In this document: piece by piece, positions 9,184 to 32,000 of the stretch
How positions within the stretch are numbered: position 1 is the first letter of the stretch
Layout of the letters: each line of letters opens with the position of its first letter
Position numbers and translations under genes: made by a program
The notes under the pieces: generated by a model
Told to the model about the DNA's origin: nothing
The model's database searches: none
The model's input: only the letters and a program-made list of their open reading frames with translations
Source of the DNA: Candidatus Saccharimonadota bacterium
Lineage (GTDB): Bacteria; Patescibacteriota; Gracilibacteria; Absconditabacterales; Absconditicoccaceae
NCBI GenBank assembly: GCA_030429145.1
Contig: JAUIDC010000001.1
Coordinates: 90,001 to 122,000, forward strand
Reading direction: 5' to 3'
Length of the DNA stretch: 32,000 bases

Positions 9184-9996
9184 TTATGCAGAGAATAGTG
9201 ACCATTGCTCATTCACTGATTTCTTTCTAAAAATAAGCAAACTTGCTCCTAAATACTTATGGTTTTCTGTAAAGAGAGACATTATTCGGAATAGTTTGTA
9301 TTCGGCAGCTTTTTTTTCATCTGCAGATAATTCACTTAATTCAGGTCTGTTAACCATATATCTACAATACTCTAATAGTTTTTTATGGTCTACATGTGCA
9401 TATTCTCCTTCGTATTTATGAAAAAGTTTTAATCCCTGCTCTTCATATGTATCTACCCGGTAATCTATGCCCCACTTTTGAATATTTAAATTCATTAGAT
9501 TATTCATTTCATCTATAATATATTGTGGAGCATCTTTCTTATAATACATCACTACATCTGCTACGAAGCCATCATCCTTACAAACTCTTACCATTTCTGC
9601 AATAGCTTTCTTCTTATCCGGTACAAAAGCTACTCCCCCCGCACTAAATACTAAATTAAATTCAGCATCTGAGAAATCTAAAGATTGAGCGTTCATTACT
9701 TTGTAGCTTACTTGCTCACTCATTTCCTCTTTTGCTGTCAATTCGGTTGCAGTAGTGACCATATTCTCATTAATATCAATACCTATCCCCTTTGCACCTG
9801 TTAACTTAGCTACTTCTCTAGTGCTTGAGCCTGTATTACAAGCTATATGGAGAAATTTTGCATCTGAATGCAAAAATACATTTTTTATCATCTCGGTAAG
9901 CATTTTTTCACCTCCAGGCGCTCTATTAGTCTCTTTAAGAAAAGCCATAAAATCTACATAAGGCATAGTAATGATTTTTTCTACTGCGTTCTGCAT
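9184..9996 (-). CDS. SAM-dependent methyltransferase (270 aa)
   Basis: Intact standard-code ORF. FLHIACNTGSSTREVAKLTGAKGIGIDINENMV (motif I-like) and LVFSAGGVAFVPDKKKAIAEMVRVCKDDGFV (post-II/III). A 5-nt gap to the upstream gene and 24 nt to the downstream gene. Confidence 0.75.
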   Translation of the reverse strand: MQNAVEKIITMPYVDFMAFLKETNRAPGGEKMLTEMIKNVFLHSDAKFLHIACNTGSSTREVAKLTGAKGIGIDINENMVTTATELTAKEEMSEQVSYKVMNAQSLDFSDAEFNLVFSAGGVAFVPDKKKAIAEMVRVCKDDGFVADVVMYYKKDAPQYIIDEMNNLMNLNIQKWGIDYRVDTYEEQGLKLFHKYEGEYAHVDHKKLLEYCRYMVNRPELSELSADEKKAAEYKLFRIMSLFTENHKYLGASLLIFRKKSVNEQWSLFSA

Positions 9997-10001
9997 AAAT
10001 G

Positions 10002-11150
10002 TTAGGGATTAGGGATTAAATGTGTTCTTGGGAATATAGTAGCATGAGTTATCATGGGTTGGTTAGTTAACCAATGCATCAGCCTTTGTCGTCCTACTCC
10101 AAATCCACTCGTAGTCGCATAATTTATTCCATCTCTGGATGAGAGATATGGCAGATAATCTTCTTGAGGCAGATTAAAGATATTTGCTTTTTGTAAGAGT
10201 ACTTCCTTATTTCTTATTCTTTGACCGCTACCAATCACTTCTCTATATCCATGTAATATCATGTCTGCATTTTTAGCTAAAGGATGTCCTTCTATTTCCT
10301 CATCAGCAACATCATGATAGAAGGGAATTTGAAGCATAGGAAAGCTATGAACAATATAATTCCCCCTTAAAATTTCTCCTAATCTTATTTCTTCCCATGA
10401 ACCAAAGTTTTTTAATGAAAACTCCTTGTAAACTTCATCCTTCGTATCATCATATAGGAGATTCAATGCCTCTCTTAAAGATAGCCTTACCATGTTTTTG
10501 TTAATAATATCTTTTTTTTCTTGTAATTGTTCATCAGTAAGAAAGAACTGCAAATCCTCTTGGTTATGTTCCATCACATAACCAATAATAAACTTAAAAA
10601 GGTCTGAAAATATTCAAATATTTTCCTCAAAATTTACCTTCCCTTCAAACTCAATATGCTGAAATTCCGTCAAATGAGAAAAATCAGATTTTTCTTTCCT
10701 AAAACTATTATATATACTGAATACCTCATCTATATTCGCTTCACAGAGAGCTAGTTCTAGATATAGCTGAGAACTTTCTGAGAGAAATATTCTTTTATTG
10801 CTTTCAAACCATTGAGGTATTTCAATAGGCAAGGCATCTGTAGTGTAATTCAATGTTTGTCCTGCATAGACTTCTCATGGTGAAGAAATCATAAGTGTAG
10901 TTATAGGAACATTACACCACTGAGCTTTTCTGTTTATAAAGAAAGTAGTTGTAGCTTGAAAAATTGCATTGTCTAACCTCGCAAGATGATTGAGCATTTG
11001 CACTCTTTTTTCTGAAGAGTTATCTATGGGCTGAATATCTTGGAAGGAAGCAAACTGGATATTTTCTATAGGTGCAAAAATTTTATTTCAACTATAAGAT
11101 ATAGTTTTATTATTATCCAAGTTCGCTTTATAAGGCATACATATTCACAT
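10002..11150 (-). CDS. Class IIb aminoacyl-tRNA synthetase catalytic-core paralog (AsnRS/AspRS/AsnA-like) without a recognisable anticodon-binding domain
   Basis: Motif 1 region FFINRKAQWCNVPITTLMISSPGE. Motif 2 SFRKEKSDFSHLTEFQHIEFEG. Motif 3 TSGFGVGRQRLMHWLTNQPMITHATIFPR. Joins three track ORFs through TGA at 10614 and 10875 (plus others). Start is ATG 11150 or 11138. TAA stop at 10002-10004. Confidence 0.8.
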
Positions 11151-11161
11151 AAGAAATAAAT

Positions 11162-11617
11162 TTATTTTTTATGCTGACGTATTTTACTGGCTAACTCCTC
11201 TAATTCCTCATCCGATTTCTCATAACCTAGAATGGTACTAATATACCCTCTATATTCAGGGAAAAACACTCTTTCCTCTGAACCCATAGGAGTAAATTTC
11301 TCCGTTAATCCATGGAGTGGATAAAGCTTCATATGAGCATGATTAATACCCATTCCTTCCATTACCATTGCCACCCTCTTTACATCTAATGCTTCTTGTA
11401 ATAGCTCTGCAACTTTTTTAGTTGACGATAAATATGCCATATAATCCTTTTCTGGCATATCAAACACATGTGAATCATGGTGCTCCCTAGAAAGCACCAA
11501 AGCCATGCCTTCTGTATTAGGAAATTTGTCTAAAATTGCTACTACATTTTCATCCTCATAGATTTTAGCACCATATTTCTTTCCATCTACTATATCACAA
11601 AAAAGACAGTTTTTCAT
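11162..11617 (-). CDS. HIT (histidine triad) family hydrolase
   Basis: MKNCLFCDIVDGKKYGAKIYEDENVVAILDKFPNTEGMALVLSREH...GMGINHAHMKLYPLH. CxxC-like N-terminus plus a HxHx(K) triad-like motif. First gene of the operon. Confidence 0.75.
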   Translation of the reverse strand: MKNCLFCDIVDGKKYGAKIYEDENVVAILDKFPNTEGMALVLSREHHDSHVFDMPEKDYMAYLSSTKKVAELLQEALDVKRVAMVMEGMGINHAHMKLYPLHGLTEKFTPMGSEERVFFPEYRGYISTILGYEKSDEELEELASKIRQHKK

Positions 11618-11787: not shown

Positions 11788-12450
11788 TTAAACTAAGAAT
11801 GAATTAGCAATTCTTTCTAATGCCTCATTATCAACTTTAGTTATTTTATGTAATTCACTATCATCTAAATTAGCTAATATTTGTTCTGCAAGAGCTCATT
11901 TATCTCTTAATCTTAAATCTGCTTTAAATTCAACATCTAATTCCTCATTTTCTATATATTTATCCATTTGACTTAGCATGCCTTTATTCAGTTTATTTAA
12001 CTTTATTAATGTTTCATAATTTAGCTTATAGTGAGACTTATGTAGTAAGTATATAAAATCAGGGTCTAATAAATCTTTTCCACCTTTGTATTTTTCTATA
12101 GTATTCATTAGTGCTCTATATTTCCCGGTTAACTTACCTTTACATTGTGGACATGCATATACATCATAGAAATCCTTTATGCTTCCTACTTCTTCGTTAA
12201 AAAGTATGTTAAAAAATCTTGAGGTAAGAGTGAAAAAGTAAATATGAGTTTCATCTATACTTACTATAAGCCACATGTGTCATTTGTCTCAAATGGCATT
12301 CGCAATATCTGGGTTTCCTCCCCTATTAATAAATTCTTGGGTACTCATACCATTTTTTAGAAAAACCCTATATATCTTTCCAACTTCAAAAATATCTACA
12401 GTCGACTTTGGCTTTAATCAAGAAAGTAAGTTTTCAAAAGGCTTATCCAT
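11788..12450 (-). CDS. Hypothetical 220-aa protein, candidate toxin partner of the adjacent Panacea-domain antitoxin
   Basis: MDKPFENLLSGLKPKSTVDIFEVGKIYRVFLKNG...GDKGHMWLIVSIDETHIYFFTLTS...CPQCKG...LHKSHYKLNY.... Extends track ORF 11896..12276 on both sides via TGA. The ATG at 12450 lies 11 nt after the stop of the upstream gene. The N-terminal pattern only weakly recalls PemK/MazF-type barrels. Confidence 0.55.
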
Positions 12451-12461
12451 TATTGTTTTAT

Positions 12462-12995
12462 TTAAATACTGAGATTATCTGCAAATCAGAAATAAATAGG
12501 TCTAAACATTTCTGTATTCAGATATCATGTTTCCTTGTGAGACTTATCTACAATCTCTTTAGTCCCTAACCTACCCAATTTATCTTTTACTTCCTCTACA
12601 ATAGAAATTTCTTTTTCGGATAAATGTTCTGCAAGGTTAATGGATTGCTTACATATAATTGCATATTTAATATATCATTCTTTCGTTTTCTTCTTATCGA
12701 TGCCTAAATAAGAACTATATAACTCATATTTCTTTTGCTCATCTTCATCTTCGATATCTGTTAATGAAACTCCTACTTTTTCAGTAATAATAAAGTCTAT
12801 TCTAGATTTAATAGATAGCGGAACGGGACCATAAGGTAATTTATAATAAATTTCTCCTGTAATAGAGACTTCTGTGCGTTTATAAAAAAGGAAATCAATA
12901 TAAAATAGTAATTTATATAATTTGGTTTGATATAAATCAGACAAATTCTCTGCTAAGTAGCAGATGATTGCTAAGTCTTTAGAAATCTCTCCCAT
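12462..12995 (-). CDS. Panacea (DUF4065, SocA/GepA-like) domain protein; probable antitoxin
   Basis: MGEISKDLAIICYLAENLSDLYQTKLYKLLFYIDFLFYKRTEVSITGEIYYKLPYGPVP matches the T-KL-KLLYY...G.P......Y....GPV signature of DUF4065. Continues through TGA at 12675 to TAA at 12462-12464. Confidence 0.7.
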
Positions 12996-13167
12996 GTATT
13001 AAGCCTAATATTTGAAAATAAATTTTTATTGGCTTTGCTTAAAGTAAAAATAAGTTAGATATTCAGTCGCGGAATGCAAGATAAACTTCATAAGCAATAT
13101 GGTATGGATTTTAAGAATAATTTTATATAAAATCATATAAATTTTAAATAAATCATTTTAGATAAAA

Positions 13168-13647
13168 ATGGAAGCATTAATAAGTGCTCTCACATGATGA
13201 TTAATAGGCTCTTTGGTGATTTATCACTTCACGCTTAAGAAAGACAGATTTTTAAATTTACAGCAAAAAGGAGAGCAATTACTACAATATATATACGAAT
13301 ACCAAGACATCCTAATGCTTGTAGATAGGGAACGCGAGAAGTTGGATGATATTAAGGATGACATTGTAAGTATAGAAGAAAAACGAGATAAAGCATATAA
13401 AGAATATAATTTGATTAATGACAGCAAACAACGTTTAAGGGAAAAAATATGGACGTTAATTAATATATACTTCCCGAGTTTAGCAGATGATTTTAGGGAG
13501 TATACTCATATTGAACTATCTCATACTCCGGATAAAGAAAAAAACGTCCAAACGATGCACTCAAGAGAAAATAAATTATCAGATATATCTCATAAATTAA
13601 TCAAGATAATCAATAAGGAAAGAGTATTTGGGATATGGAAAATTTAA
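13168..13647 (+). CDS. N-terminally membrane-anchored coiled-coil protein (159 aa)
   Basis: With ATG 13168 and two TGA=Gly, the N-terminus reads MEALISALTGGLIGSLVIYHF (TM-like). The rest is Lys/Glu/Asp-rich and heptad-like (REREKLDDIKDDIVSIEEKRDKAYKEY). Its 3' end overlaps the KAP gene start by 13 nt. Confidence 0.55.
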
Positions 13648-15980
13648 ATGAAACAATTATTACATATCTTATTATCATGCAGTATATCCCTGACAATCCT
13701 TTAGACAGCTATCAATATGACGAATTAAGAAGAGAGAACTTCATTAATTCACTTCTAAAGCTCATACAATATGGATGAAATGCACAAGACAATAAAAGCT
13801 CTGTTGTTTTAGGAATTGAATGAAAATGGGGAGATGGCAAGACTACTATTTTGAAATTTCTAGAAGAAAAATTAGAAGAGGAAGATACCATAGAAGTAAT
13901 GTGGTTCGAGCCATGGCTTTACAATAAAGATGTTGATATACATACTAAGTTTTTTGATGAATTAGCAAGTACATTATGAAGTAGTAAAAAAATAAAACTT
14001 GATGAAACACAAATACGTCAAATTGAACAATATAGCAAAATAATTTGACCTTTTCAGGACCCCACATGGGATACTGTAAAAGGCAAGGTTGGGAACTATC
14101 TAGTAGACGGGTTTATCACTATAGGCGTATTTGCCTGTACGGTCGCAACAAATATCACTTGGAAAGCAGTGTCATTTATATTAACATTTTTAATAACCTC
14201 TCGAAGAAAAATTATTTCTACTCGAGTAAATATTAAAATAACTAGAATTTTGAAAAATAAGGTAGATTTAGAACAACAGAGAGACAATATTTCTCATATT
14301 CTTTCATCTAAAGAAAAGAAATTAATCGTTATAATTGATGATATTGATAGGTTAGAAAGTGAACAATTAAAAGTTATTCTACAAATTGTCAAATCAAGCG
14401 CGAACTTTCCAAATGTCATATATATATTAAGTTATGATAGAGAAATTGTAGAAAATGTAATAAGTAATTTATATGGAAAAGAGAACAATTATCTTGATAA
14501 AATTATCCAGTTACCTGTCTCTCTTCCTCTTGTAAGAGAAGAAATAATAACAGAAATCTTGGATAAACACTTAGAACAATTTCTAGAATATATAAAATCT
14601 TTTTGACGAAAGACTTTAACGAAAGAAGAGACTAGTGAGCTAACAAATTTATTTGTAAAGGGCTATAAATTTTTCTTTAAAAACATTAGAGACATTAAAA
14701 AATACATTAACTTACTATATGTAGATTTTCTTACATTACAAAGTAAATACTCGTGACCGGAAATAAATATAATCGATTTTTTAATTATAGAAGCTTTTAA
14801 ACTATTTACCAAGCCTCTTTTCTATTTTCTATACTATCAAAAGAACAACTTGTTTTCATATAGAGGTAAAGATGACGCCCTAACCCCTCTACAAGAAATT
14901 TTTGATGATTTTTTAAAAAATAGAAATTTATTAGAATACAAAGAACTTCTATATGAACTGTTCCCTCAATTTAATAAACGCAACTATGGCATTGAAACAA
15001 CTGAAGAAATACAAAATAGAGTTTGCTCAAAAAAAAGTTTCCATAAGTATTTTGAGTTAGACATATTTTGAACTCCAAATAGTGAGTTTATAGAATTTAG
15101 GGAAAGAATAAAAAAATGACAAATGTCCCAAGCAATTAAAATATTTAAAAAAGTTGAAAATGAGGGATGAGCCTATGAGTTTATTGATAGAATTGGGAAA
15201 GTACTACTAATTGACAATAAAGAAACGCTCTCAGAAGTCGAAATAGTGGCTTTATTGCTTTTTTTAATCAACAATGAAAAAAATATAGATTTCAAACCTC
15301 TTGGTTTGTTTGACAGCTTGTATGGACCAGAAGTTATAATAATGAGAAGTATCTATCAATCCATGCTTAGATATTATGATAACAAAGATATCTTTCTCGA
15401 AATAATGTATGCTCTTATAGAAGGTGCAGATGATATTTGGCAAGTATGCAGATACTTTCGCAATCATTTACGAGATGAAAAAAATGAGGAAAGAACAAAA
15501 ATCGAAGATATTAAGTTACAAGAAAGATTGGGGGATGACATCAATTCTATATTAGATAAAATCAATCTTAAGATTAAAAACCTTCTTAAGAGTGGGAAAA
15601 TATTAGACCAAATCTCTCGAAGATTTATTTTATACTTCTATGCAACAATTTCTGGAAAACAGAAACAAGTACTTAATCGGGTAAAGAATATTTCACAAAA
15701 TATAACTACACTAAATAAATTTTATAAATCATATTTTACTAAATCCCACTCTCAAACAATGCCAATGTTTAGCTGAGACAAGATGGGACCTTTAAAAGAA
15801 AAAATATCCTTTGATATCAAAGGGTTAACAGAATGGCGCAAGTTATGAAAAATAGAAAAAGACCTTTCGAAATTATATTCTCATAATTTACTTACTGAAC
15901 ATGAATTTCAACTTGCTCAAAAAACTATTGAAGCATTTAAGAACAACAAAGAATATGATGATGATAATTATGATGATTAG
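13635..15980 (+). CDS. KAP family P-loop NTPase (781 aa) with two TM helices inserted in the NTPase domain
   Basis: Walker A VVLGIEGKWGDGKTTIL (first Gly = TGA at 13821-13823). Inserted TM pair LVDGFITIGVFACTVATNITWKAVSFILTFLITS. Walker B/KAP signature LIVIIDDIDRLESEQLKVILQIVK...NVIYILSYDREIV. Joins four track ORFs in one frame. TAG stop at 15978-15980. Confidence 0.85.
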
Positions 15981-16260
15981 ACTGCAAAACATAATTATAT
16001 AAAAAACAAAAGTAAAGCCAGTTCACAAGCCATATTACTCAATACCTCAAATCTTAAAATAATCAGTTTCGCAGTTTTTTAATATATTCTATTAAATAAT
16101 TAAAATATAAGGTCATAAAAGCATGTCATTATTTGGGCTTTTTCTTATATCTACAATTATAAATATCCATTTTCTTACAAATTTTTCTTATACTTTGTCT
16201 AAAAGTTGTATAGTATAGATTTTGGTTTGATTTTGGCTTACAAAACCTTACTTTCCTTAG

Positions 16261-16392
16261 TGCGACACTCTTATATTTATACCACACTATCCTTGAATAA
16301 TAAAAGGACGGTTTGCGATTTTCTCCGCTTACTGTCCTCACGGGCGTGTGGTGTATAAGGGTGTCGCAACCTGAGAGGTCGTAAGCCGTCCC
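16261..16392 (+). ncRNA. Unassigned GC-rich structured element (long imperfect hairpin with a competing downstream pairing); strand and function unknown
   Basis: gtgcgacact/cttata/ccacac (16261-16288) pairs with gtgtgg/tataag/ggtgtcgcaac (16347-16371). Inner hairpin aggacggt (16306-16313) / actgtcct (16332-16339). Alternatively, ggacggtttgcg (16307-16318) pairs with cgtaagccgtcc (16381-16392). It sits in a 450-nt non-coding gap upstream of the 16434/16563 CDS. Confidence 0.4.
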
Positions 16393-16562
16393 TATATTAT
16401 CATCATAGTGCTTATGACTGAAGGTTAAATGACATGCCTTCTTTTTTATTTTTTAGAAAAAGCACTATGTGGACATATAGCTTAGGATTGTGGGCATTAC
16501 TCACCTTTCTTTTATTAATGATTTGGAGTTTCCCTACCGGAGAAAAAGGATTGAGAGAGCCT

Positions 16563-17309
16563 ATGAAGTTAAAAGAGAATTTAAGAAACCGAAAGAAAAA
16601 CTGGATAAGAACTTTTCTTTCTATCATACTACTCCTCTCTCTTTGAAAAACTGTAATTTGACTAACTGCTAAATCTATAAACGACACTTATCATTCTATA
16701 GCCAGTAGTTTTTATTCTAATCCTATAATTACCATACATAACCTATCTGGTGATAAAATCAACTTATGAACTGATAATATTTTTCAAATTTTACTTACTG
16801 TTAATCACACCTCGACAGTTCTAATAAATAACAACTCTATTCCCCTATCTACTTGATTAATAATTTATACGGGAGATGCCTATTGATATACATGAATGAA
16901 CTTAGATATTATTGCAAAAAATAAATATAAACACACCGAAACACAAGTTCTCATCATGAGAAATTTTACGCAGAAAGAGATAGAAGAACAAAAGGTGAGA
17001 TTGGCTCAGCAACAGAAAGATGAAGCAGAAAGACAAGCTACCTTAGCACAAAGGGAAAAAATAAGAGCAAGCTTAGAAACCAAGTATAAAAATCTCTTCA
17101 CGAGAGGTTTATATCAATATGAGATAGAAGACAAATTATTTGATATGGGCTTTAAACAGACATCACAATGATACGGAGAAGCTCCTGATGGCTCTACCCA
17201 AGTTATTACTTACTATTGAAAAGATGAAGAAGGTTTCTTTATAGTTATTTCTCTTCAAGCTGGTTATTCCTCAAGTAAGTATTGGTATACTGTAGAAGTA
17301 AAAGAATAA
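16563..17309 (+). CDS. Hypothetical secreted/membrane-anchored protein (alternative start 16434)
   Basis: One frame is open 16434-17309 under code 25, joining track ORFs 16434..16646 and 16896..17171. MKLKENLRNRKKNWIRTFLSIILLLSLGKTVIG is signal/anchor-like. This is followed by a beta-rich segment, a charged coiled-coil (QKVRLAQQQKDEAERQATLAQREK) and a C-terminal YWYTVEVKE. TAA stop at 17307-17309. Confidence 0.5.
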
Positions 17310-17427
17310 AACTCTTGACATATTTACCTCTGAGACAAAAATGTCATTGAAAATGAAACGCCCCAAATATAAATAGATGTCATTCATATTTTAATAATAA
17401 TGAATGACCCTTATTCAACCCGCCGAT

Positions 17428-17607
17428 ATGGCAATGGTTGAGCTCGCTAGGGATAAGTTGTGAGATGTGATTAAAGATAAAAATGATATGGAGGTAGTAG
17501 AGTTCATTAACCAATGTAGAAGAATGGCAAATTTTGCTATTGATTGCGCAGAGCAGAAATTAGAAACTGGTTTATTATCTCAATCACAATCATGACTGGA
17601 GAATTAG
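17428..17607 (+). CDS. Small ORF (59 aa) overlapping the recombinase start; possible accessory/directionality factor
   Basis: MAMVELARDKLGDVIKDKNDMEVVEFINQCRRMANFAIDCAEQKLETGLLSQSQSGLEN (2 TGA=Gly). It overlaps the ATG at 17592 by 16 nt. No recognisable motif. Confidence 0.25.
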
Positions 17608-19199
17608 CAGTAGTATATAGCAGAATATCCTCAACAACACAAGAAAGCTGAGGTGGATTAAATAGTCAGGCTGTCGCATGTAGGCAATATTGTGACCATC
17701 ACAAATATGAAGTAATCAAAGAATTTAAGGATGTCATTTCGGGAGGAGAAGAAAATAGACCCGGGCTGAATGAACTCTTGAATTTTATAGATGAATACAA
17801 TAGGTCTCATAGCAAAAAAATTACTATTTTTGTTACCCATAGTGTTAATAGAATAGCAAGAAGCTTTGAAGTACATTTAAGTCTAACGACTAAACTACGC
17901 GTAAAAGGCATCAGAATTGAAACTGTAGAAATGAAGTTTGAAGAGACCCCTATCTGAAAACTCATAGAATGAATAATGGCATTACAATCTGAGTACTTCA
18001 GAAATGAGAATACAGAAAGAGTAATTTCCAGACAAGAAGCAAGATTATTGGATGGCTACCGGTCATTCGATTATCCTATTGGCTATGTAACAACTAATGC
18101 TCCAGCTGGAGGCAAATTACTTATTCCAGATGAGCCCAATGCATCTATCATAAAAGAAGCCCTTGAAGGTTATGCCTTTGGAAGATTTAATAGCATCTCA
18201 GAAGTCACAGAATTTTTGACAAAGAGAAATTTAGATTTAAGCAGGACTTCTAAGAAAAGGAAGAAAGATAGCAATATTATTCACAATTCTCTTACTGCAA
18301 GAATATTAAAACAAATACTTTATACGGGTTATATTCAATATCATAAAACCACATATAATAAAAAAGGATTAATCAAAAAACAGTGGAACATTCCTTTAAG
18401 AAAAGGCAAACATGAGTGAATAATTGATTTATCCACTTATTATACTATTCAAGAAAAACTAATTGGAAAAAGACCTTACGAAAAAGATATAAAGAAACAA
18501 AATAATGATTTCCCATTAAGGTGATACTTAGTATGTGATTGTTGCAACTTAAAATTTAGTTCCGGTCTTTCAAGAAGCGGAAGCAAGAAGCAAATACCCT
18601 ATTATCAATATAATAAAATCTGCCAAAACAAAGGAAAATCAATTAATGCAAACCACCTACACCATGAATTTGAGCATCTCATTAAAAGTCTAAAGCCAGA
18701 TAATAATTTCTTAGATTTTATGAAAATAATTATTCAATCAGAATACGAAAAGAGAAATAAAGATAAAACCATTAGTAAACAGCAATTACAAAGAAAACTT
18801 AGAGAATTAGATAAAGAAATAGATAATCTCATTAAAACCTTAGCTACAACAAACCTTCCTTTAACTAAGCAGAGAATAAGCCATAAGATTGAAGAAGCAG
18901 AGATGAAAAAACTACAAATGGAAGACGAAATTAATTGAACATCCGGCGATACGCTTCCTAAACAAGTTATTGATATAGCATGCTCAGTATTAGAAGACCC
19001 TTATTATATACGAGAGGGTGGATATATAGAGCAGAAACAAGCTTTAATAAATATTTTGTTCAGTAAAAAAATTCCAATCAATAAATCGACTGGAACTTTC
19101 TGAACACTGCCATTAAACAGTTTCTACCTATACTCTTTTAACAATTCAAAGTCTAAATTACAAACATCTGGAGGTGACGAGAGTCGAACTCGTGTCTAG
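17592..19199 (+). CDS. Large serine recombinase (integrase), 535 aa
   Basis: Resolvase-type catalytic N-terminus AVVYSRISSTTQESGGGLNSQ...PGLNELL...IFVTHSVNRIARS. Recombinase domain ...YTGYIQYH.... Zn-ribbon-like CDCCNLKF...YYQYNKIC, then a coiled-coil tail (LQRKLRELDKEIDNLIKTL). Joins track ORFs 17976..18419 and 18720..18938 via TGA. TAG stop at 19197-19199, inside ssrA (antisense). Confidence 0.85.
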
Positions 19200-19516
19200 A
19201 AGTCATGAATAAAGCCTTACTACCATCATAGTCAGTATATTATTCCACAAGGGCTATCCTTGGCCTACGGACAGGCATGATACTTTAAGGGTTGGGTTGG
19301 CACAAGGCCAATTTCCTGCTCAAGCGCCTTGAGTCTAGCAGGAGTCGGGTCTCAAGGTTAAGGCGTTAACTAGGCAGCGTATGCGTAGTTGAACGCAGCA
19401 AGTCTCATGTTAGAGTTTGCATTTTGTGGGTGAACGATTCTTTTATCCTCGGTACGCTCATCGAGCAATGGCTAGATTTAGTCATGGTGTACTCCTATCA
19501 AAACCAGCACACCCCC
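19169..19516 (-). ncRNA. ssrA: tmRNA (SsrA), about 348 nt, CCA not encoded
   Basis: 5' GGGGGTGTGCTGGTTTTGATAGG... and 3' ...ACGAG-TTCGACT-CTCGT-CACCTCC-A. The acceptor stem GGGGGTG/CACCTCC has the G3:U70 alanine identity pair, and there is a T-arm with a TTCGAnT loop. The tag ORF resumes at GCA (19420): ANSNMRLAAFNYAYAA, then TAG (to 19370). Confidence 0.85.
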
Positions 19517-19525
19517 TTGTCATTG

Positions 19526-25324: not shown

Positions 25325-25909
25325 TTACTGCCCTACTATCACCTTCGCAGCCTTGATGACTCTTGTTGTCTCACCTTGTTGGATCATATACCCTGGTTCA
25401 TACTCCTTGATGATTTTTCCTTTCATCTTTTCATCGTCTGTTGGTTCTACACCAAGTGGTTCATGTAGTTCGCTATCTGGCTCCTCGCCTATGGTAGCGA
25501 TTTTTTGTATACCAAGAGCATTGAGGGATTTCATGACATTTTCATAGACGATCTTTACGCCGTCTGCCCATTTATTTTCATGTAGCTCTTCTGGCATATT
25601 ATTAACTGAATAAGAAAGCTGATTGATCAGTGGCAGTATCTTCTCCATCACAGCTACCAGTGAGGTTGTCTTCGATTCTTTCGCTTCCTGCTCTACTCTA
25701 CGCTGAAAGGTATCAAAATCACGTTTTAACATCACATAATCATACTGCGCTTTCTTCGCAACTTCTTCCATATTTTTCACCTGCGCCTGCAATTCTTCCA
25801 CTGAAACATCTCCAGTAGCACTATCGTTCTGCTGGACTATCTGTTCCTCAGTTTCTTCTGGCATATTTTCCATATTATTGTCTTCTACCTGCTTATTTTC
25901 GTCTGTCAT
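25325..25909 (-). CDS. grpE: Nucleotide exchange factor GrpE
   Basis: Acidic N-terminus, a long helix (LQAQVKNMEEVAKKAQYDYVMLKRDFDTFQRRVEQE) and a C-terminal beta domain (HEPLG...IIKEYEPGYMIQQGETTRVIKAAKVIV), typical of GrpE. Confidence 0.85.
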   Translation of the reverse strand: MTDENKQVEDNNMENMPEETEEQIVQQNDSATGDVSVEELQAQVKNMEEVAKKAQYDYVMLKRDFDTFQRRVEQEAKESKTTSLVAVMEKILPLINQLSYSVNNMPEELHENKWADGVKIVYENVMKSLNALGIQKIATIGEEPDSELHEPLGVEPTDDEKMKGKIIKEYEPGYMIQQGETTRVIKAAKVIVGQ

Positions 25910-26019: not shown

Positions 26020-28812
26020 TTACGTAGCTTTTTTATTGTCTTTCTTCTTTGATTGAGCTTGCATCTTATCCTTTTTAGTCTGCTCTTTTCTTTCATTTTC
26101 TTTCTGTTTTCTGATGAGATCTACACCTAGCACTCTTTCTAACTTATTTTTTCTTCTTGTATAGTTCAGCTTATAGTGCGACTTCTTATGCAATTCAATG
26201 TCTTTCCTTATGTTATCTATGTCATCCGTTTGAATCAGACCATGTTTCACACCAATTTTAGCAAATTTTACAAGAGTATCTACAGGGATATCATCTAGTT
26301 TATTGCTGAAGTAAAATCTAATATCTCTCGACTGCCAAAAATAGTGAGTATGAAGAACATTCAGAAGATCAAAGATCGTGTAGATAGTCCACTTCTTTTT
26401 TAATTTTTCTATGAAGTTTTTATATATCACATCATCTGCAGCTTCCTTTCCATACATATATCTCAAAAATGCTCTTCTGAACTCATCTCCATAGATGTAT
26501 CCGGCATAGATTCCCATCTCTTTTGCAATAGTTCTCTGTCTCACCTCTTGAAGCTTATGAACGATGGTCTGTCGGTTTTTACGAGGGAACGCCTGTTCAA
26601 CAGTAGTGATACCGATCTTTTGCAAGTGCTTATGAAAGTAATCTTTTAGACTATCAAAGTTACAATACTCTGCCAGATATGCGACTATTTTCTCCTTTTT
26701 CACACCATGTGGAAATACAGGCAATCCTTGAGATTTTCTTATGTTATTTATCAGATCAAATATCTGGTTAAGTTTTTCTTCTCATTCCAGCAATAACTTT
26801 ACAGGGTTTGTAGTTCCCAGGAATTGTTTGATCTGTCTTTGTATATTCACACCCAATCTTTGCGTGAGTTCTACAAAGCTCCTCTCTTCCCAAATATCTT
26901 CTTCGTGTTTTACACTCCACACAAGAAAACTTGCCGGATTTCCCTCCAACCACGGATTACTAAAGTAATCATAGAGGGTTACTATGGAGTGAGGTTTAAT
27001 AGTTTTTTTCACAATATCATTGTACATTTTATTGAACTGCTGTTGGCTCATGGCTGGATAGCTCATGAACTCTGCAACAGCGTTGAGTCATGCTAGACTT
27101 CTCACTGACAACATCTGGTCAATTTTTTGGAACTTAGAACCACGAAATCTATCGGCTGCCTTAGAACGAATCAGATCTTTATCACATACTAGTAGCTCTT
27201 CTAGTGAAGAGATTTTCTCTTGTTCGAAGAACTCTTTAATATCTGTAAAATGCACTGTCGCATTTGGATAGTGCTGAGCAAGATACGAACTATCCACCTC
27301 ATCGCAGAGAAACATATCTTCAAGTGAGTTCGGAAGTTCATCTATAGGGTCATCTTTTGTCGGGATATATTGTTTTCTTTTCTTTCACATTCACTTAGGT
27401 CATACTGGGAGACGTCATTTTTTGGGCACAGTTAACACCCATTTATCAGGCTCAATAATACGAGTATTGTCTGTACTTTTACGAATAATTTCTTTCAACT
27501 GTTCATCGCTATAAGTGCTATATTTAGATCTATTTCTTACATTTTTAAAAATCTCTTCAACATCTTCTTCTCTCATCGTCCTCATAATTCTTCCATTGCC
27601 CTGCGTTTTGAACACGGGATCATTGCTTGCATTAAACCTTGCCGCACATCTTAGTGGACGGCAATCACTCCCCTGCACTCACATTTTTACATTTACTACA
27701 ACATCAATTTCATCATTGTATATCATTTTCGAAATCTCAGCATCAGACACCTGGGTTTCACTCGTCTGAATCATAGTCCTTATACCATGTACTTCTCTTG
27801 CATATCTCTCTATATCTTTCGCTTCTTTTATGGTAGTACAGAAAAACTTACCAGGGAAGTAGACATGTTTCTTCAATAGCTCTGCATATTTATCTACAAC
27901 GACCTCTCTTATAGGTCTTCATGTACTATCAATAAATTTTCATGAGGACTCTATCTCATGAACAGACGGTTTCTTTTCGATTCCTCCCCTGATAGGAAGA
28001 TATGCCTTGCCGACACCATCAAATCATGGACGAATAAGGATCTCGTCTTCAAAGCACTCCTGAAGCTTGATACTGATAATTTCGTGATAGCTATCTTTAA
28101 GAGATTTCTTTCTTCTATCCGGTGTCGCCGTTAGAAGAATATGCATCTTTCCATAAGGGTTTCCATGTTCTCTATCCATAAAATATTCCTTCATAGCTTT
28201 TCACACATTTCCCATAGTTTCATGAGCCTCATCACTTATGTATACCTTAGCGATGTGATTCAATTGGTCTAAAAGATCCGGAGAGTTCTTAAATAGTGAC
28301 TTCAATGATGCATAGGTTGATCACACGACAGGATTGTCTATGAGCTTCTCTTTAATCTCTTCCAAAATATGCTCCAGCGTTTCTTTGGCCGTACAATTTC
28401 AAAGTTTTTTGAATGTATGCTCTGTTTCATCATACTCCATGGATGGAATAGAAAAAATAGCCTCATTCTCATATCAGGTTTCCACCAATTGTGTTAAATT
28501 CTGCGCAGTCAAATCAACAGTCGGAGCTTTCAATACAGCAGCCAACTGCAAAGCATACAGTATTTCCGTAAAAAAGAGTGTTTTCCCTGTTCCGGTAGGG
28601 AGTTTAATATATCATTCATCTATTCACATGAAAAGCATCCTGAGCAAGGCCACATGGGTCTTTTGCTGTACTCTTCTAAGTTTTTCTGTGTCGACTTTAT
28701 AGAGCAAGTCGTGTATGACTCACGATTCAAGAAAATTATGCAACGTCTGTTCACGAAGTTCAGTAGTAGTTATATCTTCTTCTCTTGCTTCTGATCTATT
28801 ATTTCTTGCCAT
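26020..28812 (-). CDS. SF2 DEAH-box helicase (ResIII/DEAD-like core) with a C-terminal extension of about 450 aa of unknown function (930 aa)
   Basis: Six or more track ORFs share one frame, joined by TGA. Motif I KLPTGTGKT, motif II YISDEAH, motif III LLTATPD, motif VI TQGNGRIMR. The C-terminal half has no recognised domain and ends in a Lys-rich tail. ATG at 28812. TAA stop at 26020-26022. Confidence 0.8.
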
Positions 28813-28923
28813 GTTAGGTAGGGCGAGATTAAGATGCATATTTTATCAATATATCTTTTTATGTCAAGAAAAGAGAGCTTGGTGCTCTCCCTCTTGTTTT
28901 GTTTGCATAGATTGGCTCTGTAA

Positions 28924-31900
28924 TTAATTTTTCACTCTCCACCCCTGCGCTAACAATGGCTCTGCTTTTTTGTATTTCATCTCTTCTTCTTTGCCATCAG
29001 GGCTGATAACAGTCACAAGGTCATTTCTTCCGTATTTCTTCTCAGTATGTTGTATAGGAGCTTGCTGTTTTGGCATCTCTACTACTTCGACACCGTCGTC
29101 CTGTGCAAAGGCATTTGCGTATTGTTGTTGCTTAGCCTGTGTCGCATTTTGTGGCATCGGCTGAGCACGTCTTGCATTTGGCGTAAACTCAGGAACATCT
29201 TGCGATGCCTCATGCAGTCTTTCAAGCATCTGATCATTTTGCTGATCTTGCGTCCTGATCATGGCCTGTGTTTCTGGTCCGCGGAAGTCACTACGGAAGA
29301 CAACAGCTATAGTTTCCTGTTTGATGTTGAACATCAGCTGCTGAAATTTCTCAAATGCTTCCTTCTTATAAATAACCAATGGGTCTTGCTGTGCATAACC
29401 ATAGAGTCCAACCTTATCACGCAAGTATTGCATGTCATCAATATGCTGAATCCAATATTTATCAATCATCGCTAGATAGATCATACGAAGCGTTGCATCC
29501 ATCGCACGAGGATCAATACCTGCAATTTTTCTATCAAAGTACGTCTCAAACGAGTCAATAAGCTGTCCTTTCAGGTCTTTAATCGCACGTACTTTTTCTG
29601 TATTGATAGGCAATGTATCAAAGCCAAAGTCCTGCTTGATTGTCTCGACAACCTCCTTGAGATCCATCTGTGCATTCTCGTATTTCTTCACAATACCTTC
29701 CACCACATCTTCGATGAAGGCCCTAATCTCAGCTATAGTTGAGGTCGTTGACTGCTTCGTCTCTACAGCGATATAAGGAAGGATTTCTGGCTCTTGTGCT
29801 GCACAGATATGCTCTTCTTTGGCATCAATCATTATTGGTTCCACATTGAGTTGCTCTGCTAAGTGTTTACCTGCTCTTGGTGGAACATCGGTATCATTTT
29901 TATCTTGAATAACAACTATCTCATCGGCAAGAGATTGCATCTTTGCAAAATCAAATTTCCAATCAAACGTTTGGAAAAATGGTACAATCTCTCCATCTAC
30001 CATGTCAGGTCACGTAAATCCTGACAACAACACTAGTTTCCTAATCTTCACACCCTTTCTCTCCAATGCTTTCATGGCCACTACTGCTCCAAGCGAATGT
30101 CACACAAGGATAGTATTTACATTGAATTTTGCATTGTCGACGATAAATGAGATTTGTTCTTCCACATTTGGTTCGTCAGGATTTGGTAGTGGTGGATTGA
30201 GTACGATACCACCTTTCGCTTCAAGTTCCTTCTTGAGCCATGGAATAAAGTTTGCGTCCGGTCTTCACTCAAAACCGTGAAGTATCATATAGTTAGGAGT
30301 TTTTTCTTCGAGTTCAAGCATCTCATCACGCTTGGTGTAGATACGCTGTCTTTGTTTATTGATCACCGAATCGTAGTCGAAGAGATGTTTACGGATAGAA
30401 AAGTTCCATCCCTCCATCTGTTTCTGCGCACGGATAATTGATGATGAAAACTGTTTCTGTGTCAGTTCAAGATTTTCCAATTCCTCTCTTGAAAGAAGCA
30501 TACCTGCAACGGATTGGATTCTCTCACCTCCCATCTTACGCATGATCTCATCATCAAGCGCTACGTAGAAGACTGACATACCTGGATCTCCCTGACGTCA
30601 TGCACGACCTCTGAGCTGATTGTCGATACGACGTGATTCGTGTTTTTCCGTACCGAGGATAAACAATCCGTAATGAAGATTTTTTGACACTAGCCCTTCC
30701 GTATTTCCATCAGCAGCTTTCACGTGAATTTTTGCAAACCACTGTGTTGGGATTTTTTTCGCTTTATTAAATGAGATCTCTATGTGCTTACCTGCTACAT
30801 TGAGGATTCCCTGCTCTGCCGTACGAATCTGCTCATCGCTGAGACCCCACGTCTGTTTCATCGCTTCGATGGTAAAATCGAACTCTCTTTCAGAAAAGAC
30901 AGTTGCCTTTACGTCGTGCGGAGCGACCTTGCCAAATGTATTTCATTGTAGTGTTTGGTCTATCCATTTGATATAGTTTGTAGCAATTTTCTCATTGAGT
31001 CACTTCTCAAGCTTGATGTCGGTACCACGTCATGCCATATTGGTTGCAACGACTACAGAACCAGACTTTCCAGCATTTGAGACGATCTCAGCCTCTTTCT
31101 CATGAAACTTTGCATTGAGTACGTAGTGCTGTACTTGGATTTTACGTAGGATCTCCGATACGAGCTCCGAAGTATGGATGCTCGACGTACCAATAAGGAT
31201 AGGCACTCCTGCATCATGGTAGAACTTGATCGCGTCTACGACCGCCTTCCACTTTGCATTTTGATTGAAGTAGACCTTATCATGCCAGTCTGCACGGATG
31301 ATTGGTCTGTTCGTCGGGATACTCAACACCTCAAGATCATAGATCTTTTCAAACTCTTCACCTTCAGTCGTCGCAGTACCTGTCATACCTGCCAGCTTAT
31401 TATACTGCTTGAAAAAATTCTGGTAGGTGATCGTTGCGAGAGTTTGCGACTCGCGCTGGATGGTCACACCCTCTTTTGCTTCTATAGCCTGATGGAGCCC
31501 CTCAGAATAACGACGTCATGGCATCGTACGTCCTGTGTGTTCATCTACAATCAGGATCTCACCATCATGCACAATATAGTCCTTATTGTTATGATAACAC
31601 GCCTGTGCCTTCAACGCATTTTCTATATGATGAATCTCATCAAAACCAAAATCTTTATACAAATTTTCTACTCCAAGGGTCTTCTCCAATTTCTCGATAC
31701 CCTGCCCACTGAGGGTCACATTTTTATTCTTCTCATCGATATAGTAGTCGCCATCTTCTACCTGTTCATCCTCTTTCTTTAACACCTCGGCTAAGAAACC
31801 TTTTGGTGTTTTCTTTTTTTGCGAACATGGCGTCAGTGTACGAACGATCTTTGAGTAGTAGTCATACTTCTCTGTCGGATCAGCCGAAGGCTGCGAGATG

Positions 31901-32000
31901 ATCAATGGCGTTCTCGCCTCATCGATCAAAATAGAGTCGACTTCGTCGACGATAGCAAAATTGAGCGGACGCCGTGTCACATTACGCTCAGAAAGCGAGC
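28924..32000 (-). CDS. secA: Preprotein translocase ATPase SecA (5'-truncated by the window end) carrying an internal alpha/beta-hydrolase domain insertion
   Basis: Five track ORFs are in one frame. DEHTGRTMP-[TGA]-RR, ATNMA-[TGA]-[18 protein letters not shown]-[TGA]-RQGD and [17 protein letters not shown] are canonical SecA blocks. TAA stop at 28924-28926. Confidence 0.9.
29770..30291 (-). other. In-frame serine-hydrolase (YdeN/RBBP9-like alpha/beta-hydrolase) domain inserted in the SecA helical scaffold/wing region
   Basis: [41 protein letters not shown]...[16 protein letters not shown] (GxSxG)...[12 protein letters not shown] (Asp)...AKEEHI (His). Flanked by the SecA blocks [16 protein letters not shown] and [13 protein letters not shown]. 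Confidence 0.7.

Follow-up and report, generated by a model that had tools for sequence, protein, structure and literature searches.

A YdeN/RBBP9-type serine hydrolase domain lies in frame within the SecA of a code-25 bacterium of the Candidate Phyla Radiation

SecA is among the most intensively studied bacterial motors, and a secA gene that carries a further enzyme within its reading frame raises the questions of what this enzyme is, how it came to be there and what it would do at the translocase. Such a gene is located at the end of a stretch of 32,000 nucleotides from a Candidatus Saccharimonadota bacterium (positions 90,001 to 122,000 of contig JAUIDC010000001.1, assembly GCA_030429145.1), which is called the window here. 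The original prediction, made from the letters of the window, had read an insert of about 174 residues at 29770-30291 as an alpha/beta serine hydrolase domain. We found that the in-frame insertion is real, vertically inherited and selectively maintained, and that all catalytic features of the hydrolase family are intact. As an overall explanation we favour an active hydrolase that is tethered to SecA, with SecA as its permissive carrier, and we regard this explanation as rather probable.

The partial secA coding sequence occupies 28924-31998 on the minus strand of the window and contains 1,024 codons and a stop codon under genetic code 25, with eight TGA codons read as glycine. The frame extends past the end of the window, leaving the N-terminal part of about 215 codons outside. 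With only TAA and TAG counted as stops, none was found in this frame; 28924-31998 is one frame of 3,075 nucleotides, in agreement with the earlier claim that it is unbroken for more than 3 kb under code 25. If code 11 is used instead, the secA frame falls into pieces and the region of 28-32 kb shows only scattered short open reading frames (ORFs). For the whole window, ORFs of at least 150 amino acids amount to 9.5 kb under code 11 versus 33.9 kb with TGA as a sense codon. All eight in-frame TGAs of secA are located where a glycine is expected, including the universal SecA motif GRAG*RQGDPG and the first glycine of the hydrolase elbow G-H-S-L-G. In a codon alignment (five orthologs), the remaining sequences have only GGN at 13 of the 20 columns with a TGA. 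Since the TGAs are found at glycine positions and the orthologs have GGN in these columns, the source organism uses code 25 with TGA as glycine. The host is a code-25 bacterium belonging to the Candidate Phyla Radiation (CPR) related to Absconditabacteria/Gracilibacteria.

The gene calls of GenBank and Logan, which use code 11, cut secA into three to five 'hypothetical proteins', for example KBC03_02800 (loci L001, L003, L005 and L009), and this fragmentation is probably the reason why the architecture has gone unnoticed. The same fragmentation could be taken as a sign that the architecture is an artefact, arising from a chimeric assembly, from the wrong code or from two or three genes read as one. 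However, TGA aligns with GGN in orthologs, the 3,075 nucleotides are free of TAA and TAG, and the same in-frame architecture with the same junctions was found in independent NCBI, ENA and Logan assemblies. These include OZ246420.1 (1.1 Mb), with the ortholog P0179 as a single code-11 ORF. The concern about an assembly error is thereby answered, and we consider an artefact so improbable that it can practically be set aside.

The partial protein contains the Pfam domains SecA_DEAD, SecA_PP_bind, P-loop_SecA and SecA_SW, and solved SecAs were matched by phmmer with an E-value of about 1e-130. The SecA motor is present including a second nucleotide-binding domain (NBD2) of the SecA type and its motifs such as GRGTD (PF21090 with 227 bits, PF07517 with 132.6 bits), and the preprotein cross-linking domain (PPXD) is located in NBD1 (PF01043 with 127.7 bits, amino acids 76-173). 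The scaffold, the wing and the two-helix finger are matched by PF07516 (160 bits) in two stretches, and it is between these two SecA_SW stretches that PF06821 Ser_hydrolase is located. The window ends before the N-terminus of NBD1; the Walker A motif of this domain (MKTGEGKTL) is present in the full-length orthologs L001, L005 and L009. Compared with canonical SecA (E. coli 2FSF/2VDA, B. subtilis 1M6N, T. maritima 3DIN), the protein of the window matches in the DEAD motor, the PPXD, NBD2, the scaffold and the wing, but adds a 177-residue enzyme at about residue 665 and a VAR insert of about 108 residues, and its tail lacks the zinc-binding cysteines and histidines.

The alignments place the insert precisely. 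The solved SecAs align to amino acids 444-561/565 and resume near 803, and the stretch across the site comprises 59 residues in T. thermophilus SecA and 52 in C. difficile SecA2 versus 241 and 238 in the window. After deletion of the module in silico, 194 residues of the protein aligned with E. coli SecA 623-818 in a single block that looks ungapped. The insertion point corresponds to about residue 665 of E. coli SecA, where the long scaffold helix reaches its distal end, just before the wing domain. The C-terminal end of the scaffold helix (30304-30378, minus strand, amino acids 541-565) aligns to E. coli SecA and forms the N-junction of the insert. It is followed by the YdeN/RBBP9-type hydrolase cassette (29764-30294, minus strand, amino acids 569-745, 177 residues), which starts with N-YMILHG, and by a polar, Ser/Thr-rich return linker (29728-29763, minus strand, amino acids 746-757), which differs in sequence between orthologs and leads into the first wing helix. 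At the junctions EEKT is followed by PNYMILHG and STIAE by IRAF. The tether to SecA would be a junction of 2-3 residues on the N-terminal side and, on the C-terminal side, a polar linker of about 12. The insert as originally delimited corresponds exactly to Y570-I743 (174 amino acids), and its description as a domain insertion, as opposed to a separate or split gene, is borne out by the colinearity of the module-free protein with E. coli SecA. Split-gene and chimera readings were rejected on this colinearity, the junction sequences and the independent assemblies.

Inteins are likewise autonomous folds that are embedded in frame in essential proteins. An intein reading was nevertheless rejected, since no Hint or intein match was found with Pfam and the junctions have neither an N-terminal Cys/Ser nucleophile nor a C-terminal His-Asn followed by Cys/Ser/Thr. 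In addition, the site used here is a variable loop and not a conserved motif. Lineage-specific inserts in SecA have been described before, namely conserved signature indels (CSIs) of 50 amino acids in Thermotogales/Aquificales and of 76 amino acids in Thermales, which are surface-exposed and located in the ATPase domains (PMC7023208). Such CSIs and the VAR region of E. coli are clade-specific tolerated insertions, and the NBD2 insert of the window is of the same kind. The hydrolase differs from the known inserts of 50-76 residues, which are non-enzymatic and found in the ATPase domains, in being a complete enzyme at the junction of the helical scaffold domain (HSD) and the helical wing domain (HWD). 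Our literature search found no description of a SecA or a leucyl-tRNA synthetase (LeuRS) carrying a PF06821 domain, which for SecA agrees with the earlier statement that none with an embedded esterase/lipase-like domain was known.

The assignment of the insert to the serine hydrolases is supported by profile searches as well as by the active site. PF06821 matched with 37.3 bits for the insert alone and 33 bits in context, both above the gathering cutoff of 22, over profile positions 1-157 of 172. A family profile built from the insert and 55 homologs retrieved B. subtilis YdeN (1UXO) with E=2e-49 and human RBBP9 with E=2e-31. The hydrolase motifs quoted in the original prediction are all present in the translation. 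The HG motif of the oxyanion hole (His574-Gly575, 30274-30279, minus strand) follows strand b1, and every one of 40 embedded and 24 short family members has it. The nucleophile elbow G633-H-S635-L-G637 is located at 30088-30102 (minus strand), with the TGA for G633 at 30100-30102 and the codon for Ser635 at 30094-30096. In the alignment with YdeN and RBBP9, Ser635 aligns with Ser75 of RBBP9, the predicted catalytic Asp702 within QDKND-T (29893-29895, minus strand) with Asp138, and the predicted catalytic His730 within KEEH-IC (29809-29811, minus strand) with His165. The elbow G-H-S-x-G is invariant in 56 family sequences, and conservation of the Asp and the His is 90% or higher. Conservation of the triad also holds within the insert clade, where the Ser was found in 7/7, the Asp in 9/9 and the His in 9/9 observable orthologs.

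For the fold, structure models of the orthologs P0178 and P0179 (68-70% identical) stand in for the window insert. The whole hydrolase and the C-terminal half of SecA are free of TGA in P0179 (68% identical), where they form a single code-11 ORF. The AlphaFold2 (AF2) model of P0179 shows the scaffold helix at 26-78, a strand at 81-86 and then alternating alpha/beta elements up to a helix at 249-255, with a pLDDT of 83-95 for the hydrolase. A coil (256-265) and the HWD helix (266-288) follow, and the scaffold helix ends within two residues of strand b1. With this model, Foldseek gave a TM score of 0.82 for 1UXO, with 185 of 186 residues aligned (rmsd 2.3 A), and TM scores of 0.78-0.83 for RBBP9. 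The model of P0178, which ends after the Asp, shows a b-a-b unit starting two residues past the scaffold helix, and its top Foldseek match was again 1UXO. The AlphaFold comparison proposed with the original prediction thus yields a predicted autonomous alpha/beta lobe for the ortholog. B. subtilis YdeN shares the fold, the length class, the HG and the positions of G-x-S-x-G, Asp and His with the insert, but YdeN and most PF06821 members are free proteins of about 190 amino acids, whereas the window domain is internal, has E-E-H-I in place of G-H-F and a shortened C-terminal helix. Human RBBP9 (2QS9, 7OEX), an aromatic aminopeptidase, belongs to the same family and is about 20-27% identical to the window domain.

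How widespread is this architecture? The comparison with SecAs of other code-25 and CPR bacteria revealed the same insert at the same site in about 13 lineages including the window (counted at <90% identity). The carriers are L001/L002 (Logan), L003/L004 (GCA_040384245.1), L005 (the GTDB representative JAGOPC01, 'Patescibacteria group bacterium') and L009, which is the complete 1.107-Mb chromosome OZ246420.1, together with the fragments P0001/P0178, P0177, P0002/P0071, P0060, P0079, P0080, P0084 and P0098/P0124. This count is a lower bound because the scan patterns were clade-specific: the GTDB scan with such patterns, which would miss L009, gave one locus, and the scan of JGI metagenomes with insert-specific patterns gave no confirmed locus. 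The nearest SecAs without the insert are L006 (GCA_021733565.1) and L007 (JGI 3300031711), in which TGA is also a sense codon. Their preceding helix is 83-85% identical, and at the site they have Gly/Pro-rich loops of 20-30 residues; relative to them the insert is a clean indel. The next-nearest insert-less SecAs are those of P0059/P0119 (Candidatus Absconditabacterales) and of Peribacteria. A neighbour-joining (NJ) tree built on 134 residues after the insert unites all insert-bearers in a single clade, to which L006 is the sister. This indicates one acquisition by the ancestor of the clade, into a pre-existing variable loop, followed by vertical inheritance.

Synonymous sites are saturated between the orthologs (pS 0.74-0.81) and thus only comparisons of the nonsynonymous differences (pN) between regions are meaningful. 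The pN of the insert (0.19-0.25) equals that of the HWD and IRA1 of SecA (0.15-0.21) and is below that of the VAR insert (0.22-0.30), which indicates purifying selection on the insert as strong as on SecA's own wing domain. The hydrolase insert has a lower GC content at third codon positions (GC3) than the secA sequence on either side of it in four of four lineages (window, L001, L003, L005); in the window it is 0.34 for the insert (29728-30303) versus 0.46 and 0.43 for the flanks. This low GC3 persists despite the ancient acquisition and the saturated synonymous sites.

The closest relatives of the insert outside SecA are found within other proteins. With P0001 as query, phmmer retrieved 1891 hits from 1.84 billion cluster representatives, and the best 150 were classified with Pfam and blastp. 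After the SecA ortholog P0179, the best matches were 42-49% identical and located within long proteins, embedded in LeuRS, while the best full-length stand-alone homolog was 39% identical. Among these best 150 of 1891, the host was LeuRS in 48 cases, a ValRS-like protein in three, AlaRS in two and SecA in one; further hosts were a UvrA-like protein (P0284), Der/EngA (P0271) and TsaD (P0248). A Peptidase_S51 fusion (P0239), a tandem hydrolase (P0181) and 83 short proteins without a host were also found. In LeuRS, the cassette is located at several distinct sites flanking the CP1 editing domain, often together with NUDIX or GNAT domains that are likewise embedded. The named hosts are CPR bacteria with the standard code (Candidatus Uhrbacteria, Minisyncoccia, Patescibacteria group). 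Around L008, the closest stand-alone homolog, the genomic context gave no sign of a connection with Sec genes.

The embedded copies share more than their fold. In addition to the HG, they have the Ser and the His in 40/40 and Asp or Glu at the acidic position in 36/40. They start with N-[FY]-[VI]-[LI]-L-H-G and end with H-[FI]-x3-4-E-P-x-[ILV]-L, after which the host sequence follows directly, a boundary pattern seen in the window SecA and in the copies from LeuRS, AlaRS, Der and TsaD. The catalytic His comes after acidic residues: the signature E-E-H-[IF] is common to the SecA insert and the LeuRS-embedded copies, and E-E-H-I-C is found in SecA and several LeuRS copies. Free enzymes differ in this region: they have G-H-F ... 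E-L-P, and their C-terminal helix is longer. The SecA inserts group with the LeuRS-embedded copies and a few short members in an NJ tree, which is unsupported. Judged by these sequence features, the SecA insert belongs to an insertion-adapted subfamily that is embedded in LeuRS, ValRS, AlaRS, UvrA, Der and TsaD of CPR bacteria. Since its closest relatives are embedded in other proteins and share boundary motifs with it, the domain looks like a portable insertion cassette. The relatives in LeuRS, ValRS, AlaRS, UvrA, Der and TsaD have the same boundaries and an intact triad, but differ in host protein and site, and their hosts use the standard code whereas the SecA hosts use code 25. Our literature search yielded no publication on these embedded copies.

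LeuRS of CPR bacteria can contain up to three foreign in-frame domains around CP1, namely Ser_hydrolase (sometimes in two copies), NUDIX and GNAT (P0188, P0215, P0218, P0222, P0225, P0232, P0233, P0235, P0241 and P0254), and P0235 also contains an embedded IS200-type Y1 transposase domain. A role of the cassette as helper of the editing domain, that is, as an extra aminoacyl-tRNA deacylase, was considered since it fitted the LeuRS, ValRS and AlaRS hosts; it was weakened by the hosts UvrA, Der and TsaD and was rejected.

The distribution over hosts would also fit a selfish or near-neutral mobile cassette, which spread in frame into permissive loops and was kept since precise excision is impossible. 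The many unrelated essential hosts, the several sites within LeuRS, the sharply conserved boundaries across hosts and the NUDIX, GNAT and IS200 Y1 transposase domains in the LeuRS hosts are in line with such a cassette, and so is the GC3 below that of flanking secA in all four lineages. However, neither mobility machinery nor repeats nor splicing motifs were seen at the junctions, and the catalytic residues, which a passenger would not need, are kept in the SecA and the aminoacyl-tRNA synthetase (aaRS) copies. Moreover, the acquisition by SecA appears single, ancient and vertical, with a pN equal to that of the host domain. We therefore consider a purely selfish cassette quite improbable. A doubtful, though possible, reading of the multi-host pattern is that the cassette represents a hitherto unrecognised type of portable in-frame domain, which has repeatedly colonised permissive loops of nucleotide-using essential enzymes in CPR bacteria, either by a dedicated mechanism of spread or because of a shared on-site quality-control chemistry such as aminoacyl-ester or N-terminal hydrolysis. 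If this were true, quality control at SecA would mean an enzymatic processing of clients at the translocon entrance.

What would the hydrolase do in SecA? In the SecA-SecYE complex, SecA is oriented parallel to the membrane with NBD1, NBD2, PPXD and HWD as its four corners, and the HWD is located opposite the NBDs (PMC9926265). Because the HWD corner faces away from the NBDs (PMC9926265), the inserted lobe would be located at an outer corner of SecA, and from there it would disturb neither the ATPase motor nor the docking to SecY. The lobe would act as a catalytically active hydrolase with a permanent tether to the translocase. Since the cassette is found in seven or more unrelated essential proteins, the most likely role of SecA is that of a permissive carrier with constitutive expression, without a partnership in the chemistry of translocation. 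By analogy to RBBP9, an aminopeptidase that acts on aromatic N-terminal residues and depends on a free alpha-amine (PMC8866121), the cassette would most likely hydrolyse an aminoacyl or N-terminal residue or else a small ester.

Several points weigh against this favoured explanation. The structural evidence is that of orthologs with 68-70% identity to the window insert, and the P0179 model has a pTM of 0.48 and gives no inter-domain geometry, that is, no position of the active site relative to the clamp or the membrane. The amine-binding residues of RBBP9 are matched in part: Ser76 is replaced by Leu, and the Tyr99 position is occupied by an aromatic residue (Phe/Tyr). The equivalent of Glu108 is uncertain, its column being alignment-dependent and part of a poorly aligned loop, with Glu in 7/8 sequences of the insert clade and, in the window, Val with a Glu two residues upstream. 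Neither of the NJ trees, that of the SecA clade and that of the cassette family, carries support values. Furthermore, the carrier view argues from host diversity, and the long and strong retention in SecA would also fit a role linked to SecA.

Such a role might be that of a translocon-specific enzyme, which trims or deacylates the cytosolic N-termini of preproteins in the PPXD/HWD groove or hydrolyses aminoacyl or acyl lipid esters beside SecYEG. The site at the HWD corner, next to the PPXD corner of a SecA that is oriented parallel to the membrane (PMC9926265), would be suitable for this, and RBBP9 does remove N-terminal residues and needs a free alpha-amine (PMC8866121). In addition, the insert has been retained with an intact triad across the clade, in which identity has fallen to about 65%, and the loss of the zinc-finger cysteine ligands in the same clade suggests that the handling of clients or partners has been remodelled. 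However, the hosts LeuRS, ValRS, AlaRS, UvrA, Der and TsaD share no substrate with SecA, the P0179 model gives no geometry that would place the active site near the clamp, and close relatives export proteins without the insert. The embedding in multiple hosts weakens a SecA-specific functional reading, and a translocon-specific enzyme seems unlikely to us.

Two further peculiarities of this SecA are located outside the hydrolase. A long VAR-type insert is found in NBD2 (30676-30999, minus strand), with a variable core of about 108 residues (amino acids 334-441) that has no Pfam match. It is the fastest-evolving region of SecA (50-64% identity) and is also present in the relatives without hydrolase, L006 and L007, and it is therefore older than the hydrolase insert. 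The original prediction was right about the existence of this second long variable insert, but its coordinates, about 115 amino acids at 30862-31020, cover only part of it: from GRGTD (amino acids 323-327) to HESRRID (amino acids 453-459) there are 125 residues, located at 30643-31017.

The second peculiarity is the C-terminal tail of SecA (28927-29040, minus strand), which follows a Gln-rich linker. Here, a degenerate metal-binding domain replaces GRNDPCPCGSGKKYKKCHG, and all zinc ligands are lost; the window SecA has no PF02810 match for a SEC-C motif, and its tail contains no cysteine. In the model of the ortholog P0179, the degenerate tail is still a small hairpin with a helix (pLDDT of about 83). 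The zinc ligands are lost in every insert-bearing C-terminus seen, whereas insert-less relatives (P0059, P0061, P0064, P0068 and P0076) keep CxCGSGKK[YF]KKC. This coincidence would be expected if the hydrolase were a structural or regulatory module without catalysis, serving as a surface for docking or dimerisation that compensates, for example, for the degenerate metal-binding domain, which in the insert-less relatives reads CxCGSGKK[YF]KKCHG. Pseudo-enzymes, however, normally lose at least one of the catalytic features, and the HG, the elbow, the Asp and the His are invariant here, so that a non-catalytic module is very unlikely.

The remainder of the window contains several other features. 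Between secA and grpE (25325-25909), a gene for a ResIII/DEAD-box helicase-like protein of 939 amino acids is located (26020-28839, minus strand). In L001, L003 and L009, grpE comes after secA with nothing but short ORFs in between, and the helicase-like gene therefore looks like a lineage-specific insertion. A stretch of low GC content (about 11800-19520, GC 0.28-0.31 versus 0.36-0.45 elsewhere) contains genes for a SocA/Panacea antitoxin-like protein (12462-12995) and a KAP-family P-loop NTPase of 781 amino acids (13635-15980). A large serine recombinase is encoded at 17592-19199, its end adjoining the tmRNA gene (19166-19516, tag ANSNMRLAAFNYAYAA), and the stretch is probably a mobile or defence island integrated at ssrA. 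At 9184-11617 (minus strand), a class II aaRS-like catalytic core of 382 amino acids (PF00152) without an anticodon-binding domain is encoded. Its neighbours are a HIT-family protein, a methyltransferase and a GT1 glycosyltransferase. Rather than a true tRNA synthetase, this core may represent an amino-acid ligase or an EpmA/AsnA-like paralog.

For SecA itself, the insertion means that a complete folded domain can be accommodated at the tip of the scaffold helix, which is useful for engineering and for the interpretation of HSD and HWD mechanics. It is also an example of how the annotation of TGA-recoded genomes with code 11 hides fusions from protein databases. The multi-host cassette is a more novel lead than the insertion into SecA. 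To our knowledge, the bacterial members of the YdeN/RBBP9 family are uncharacterised. Rosetta-stone logic ties this functionally obscure family to editing aminoacyl-tRNA synthetases, TsaD, Der, UvrA and SecA, and this set of partners provides concrete candidate substrates for the YdeN family.

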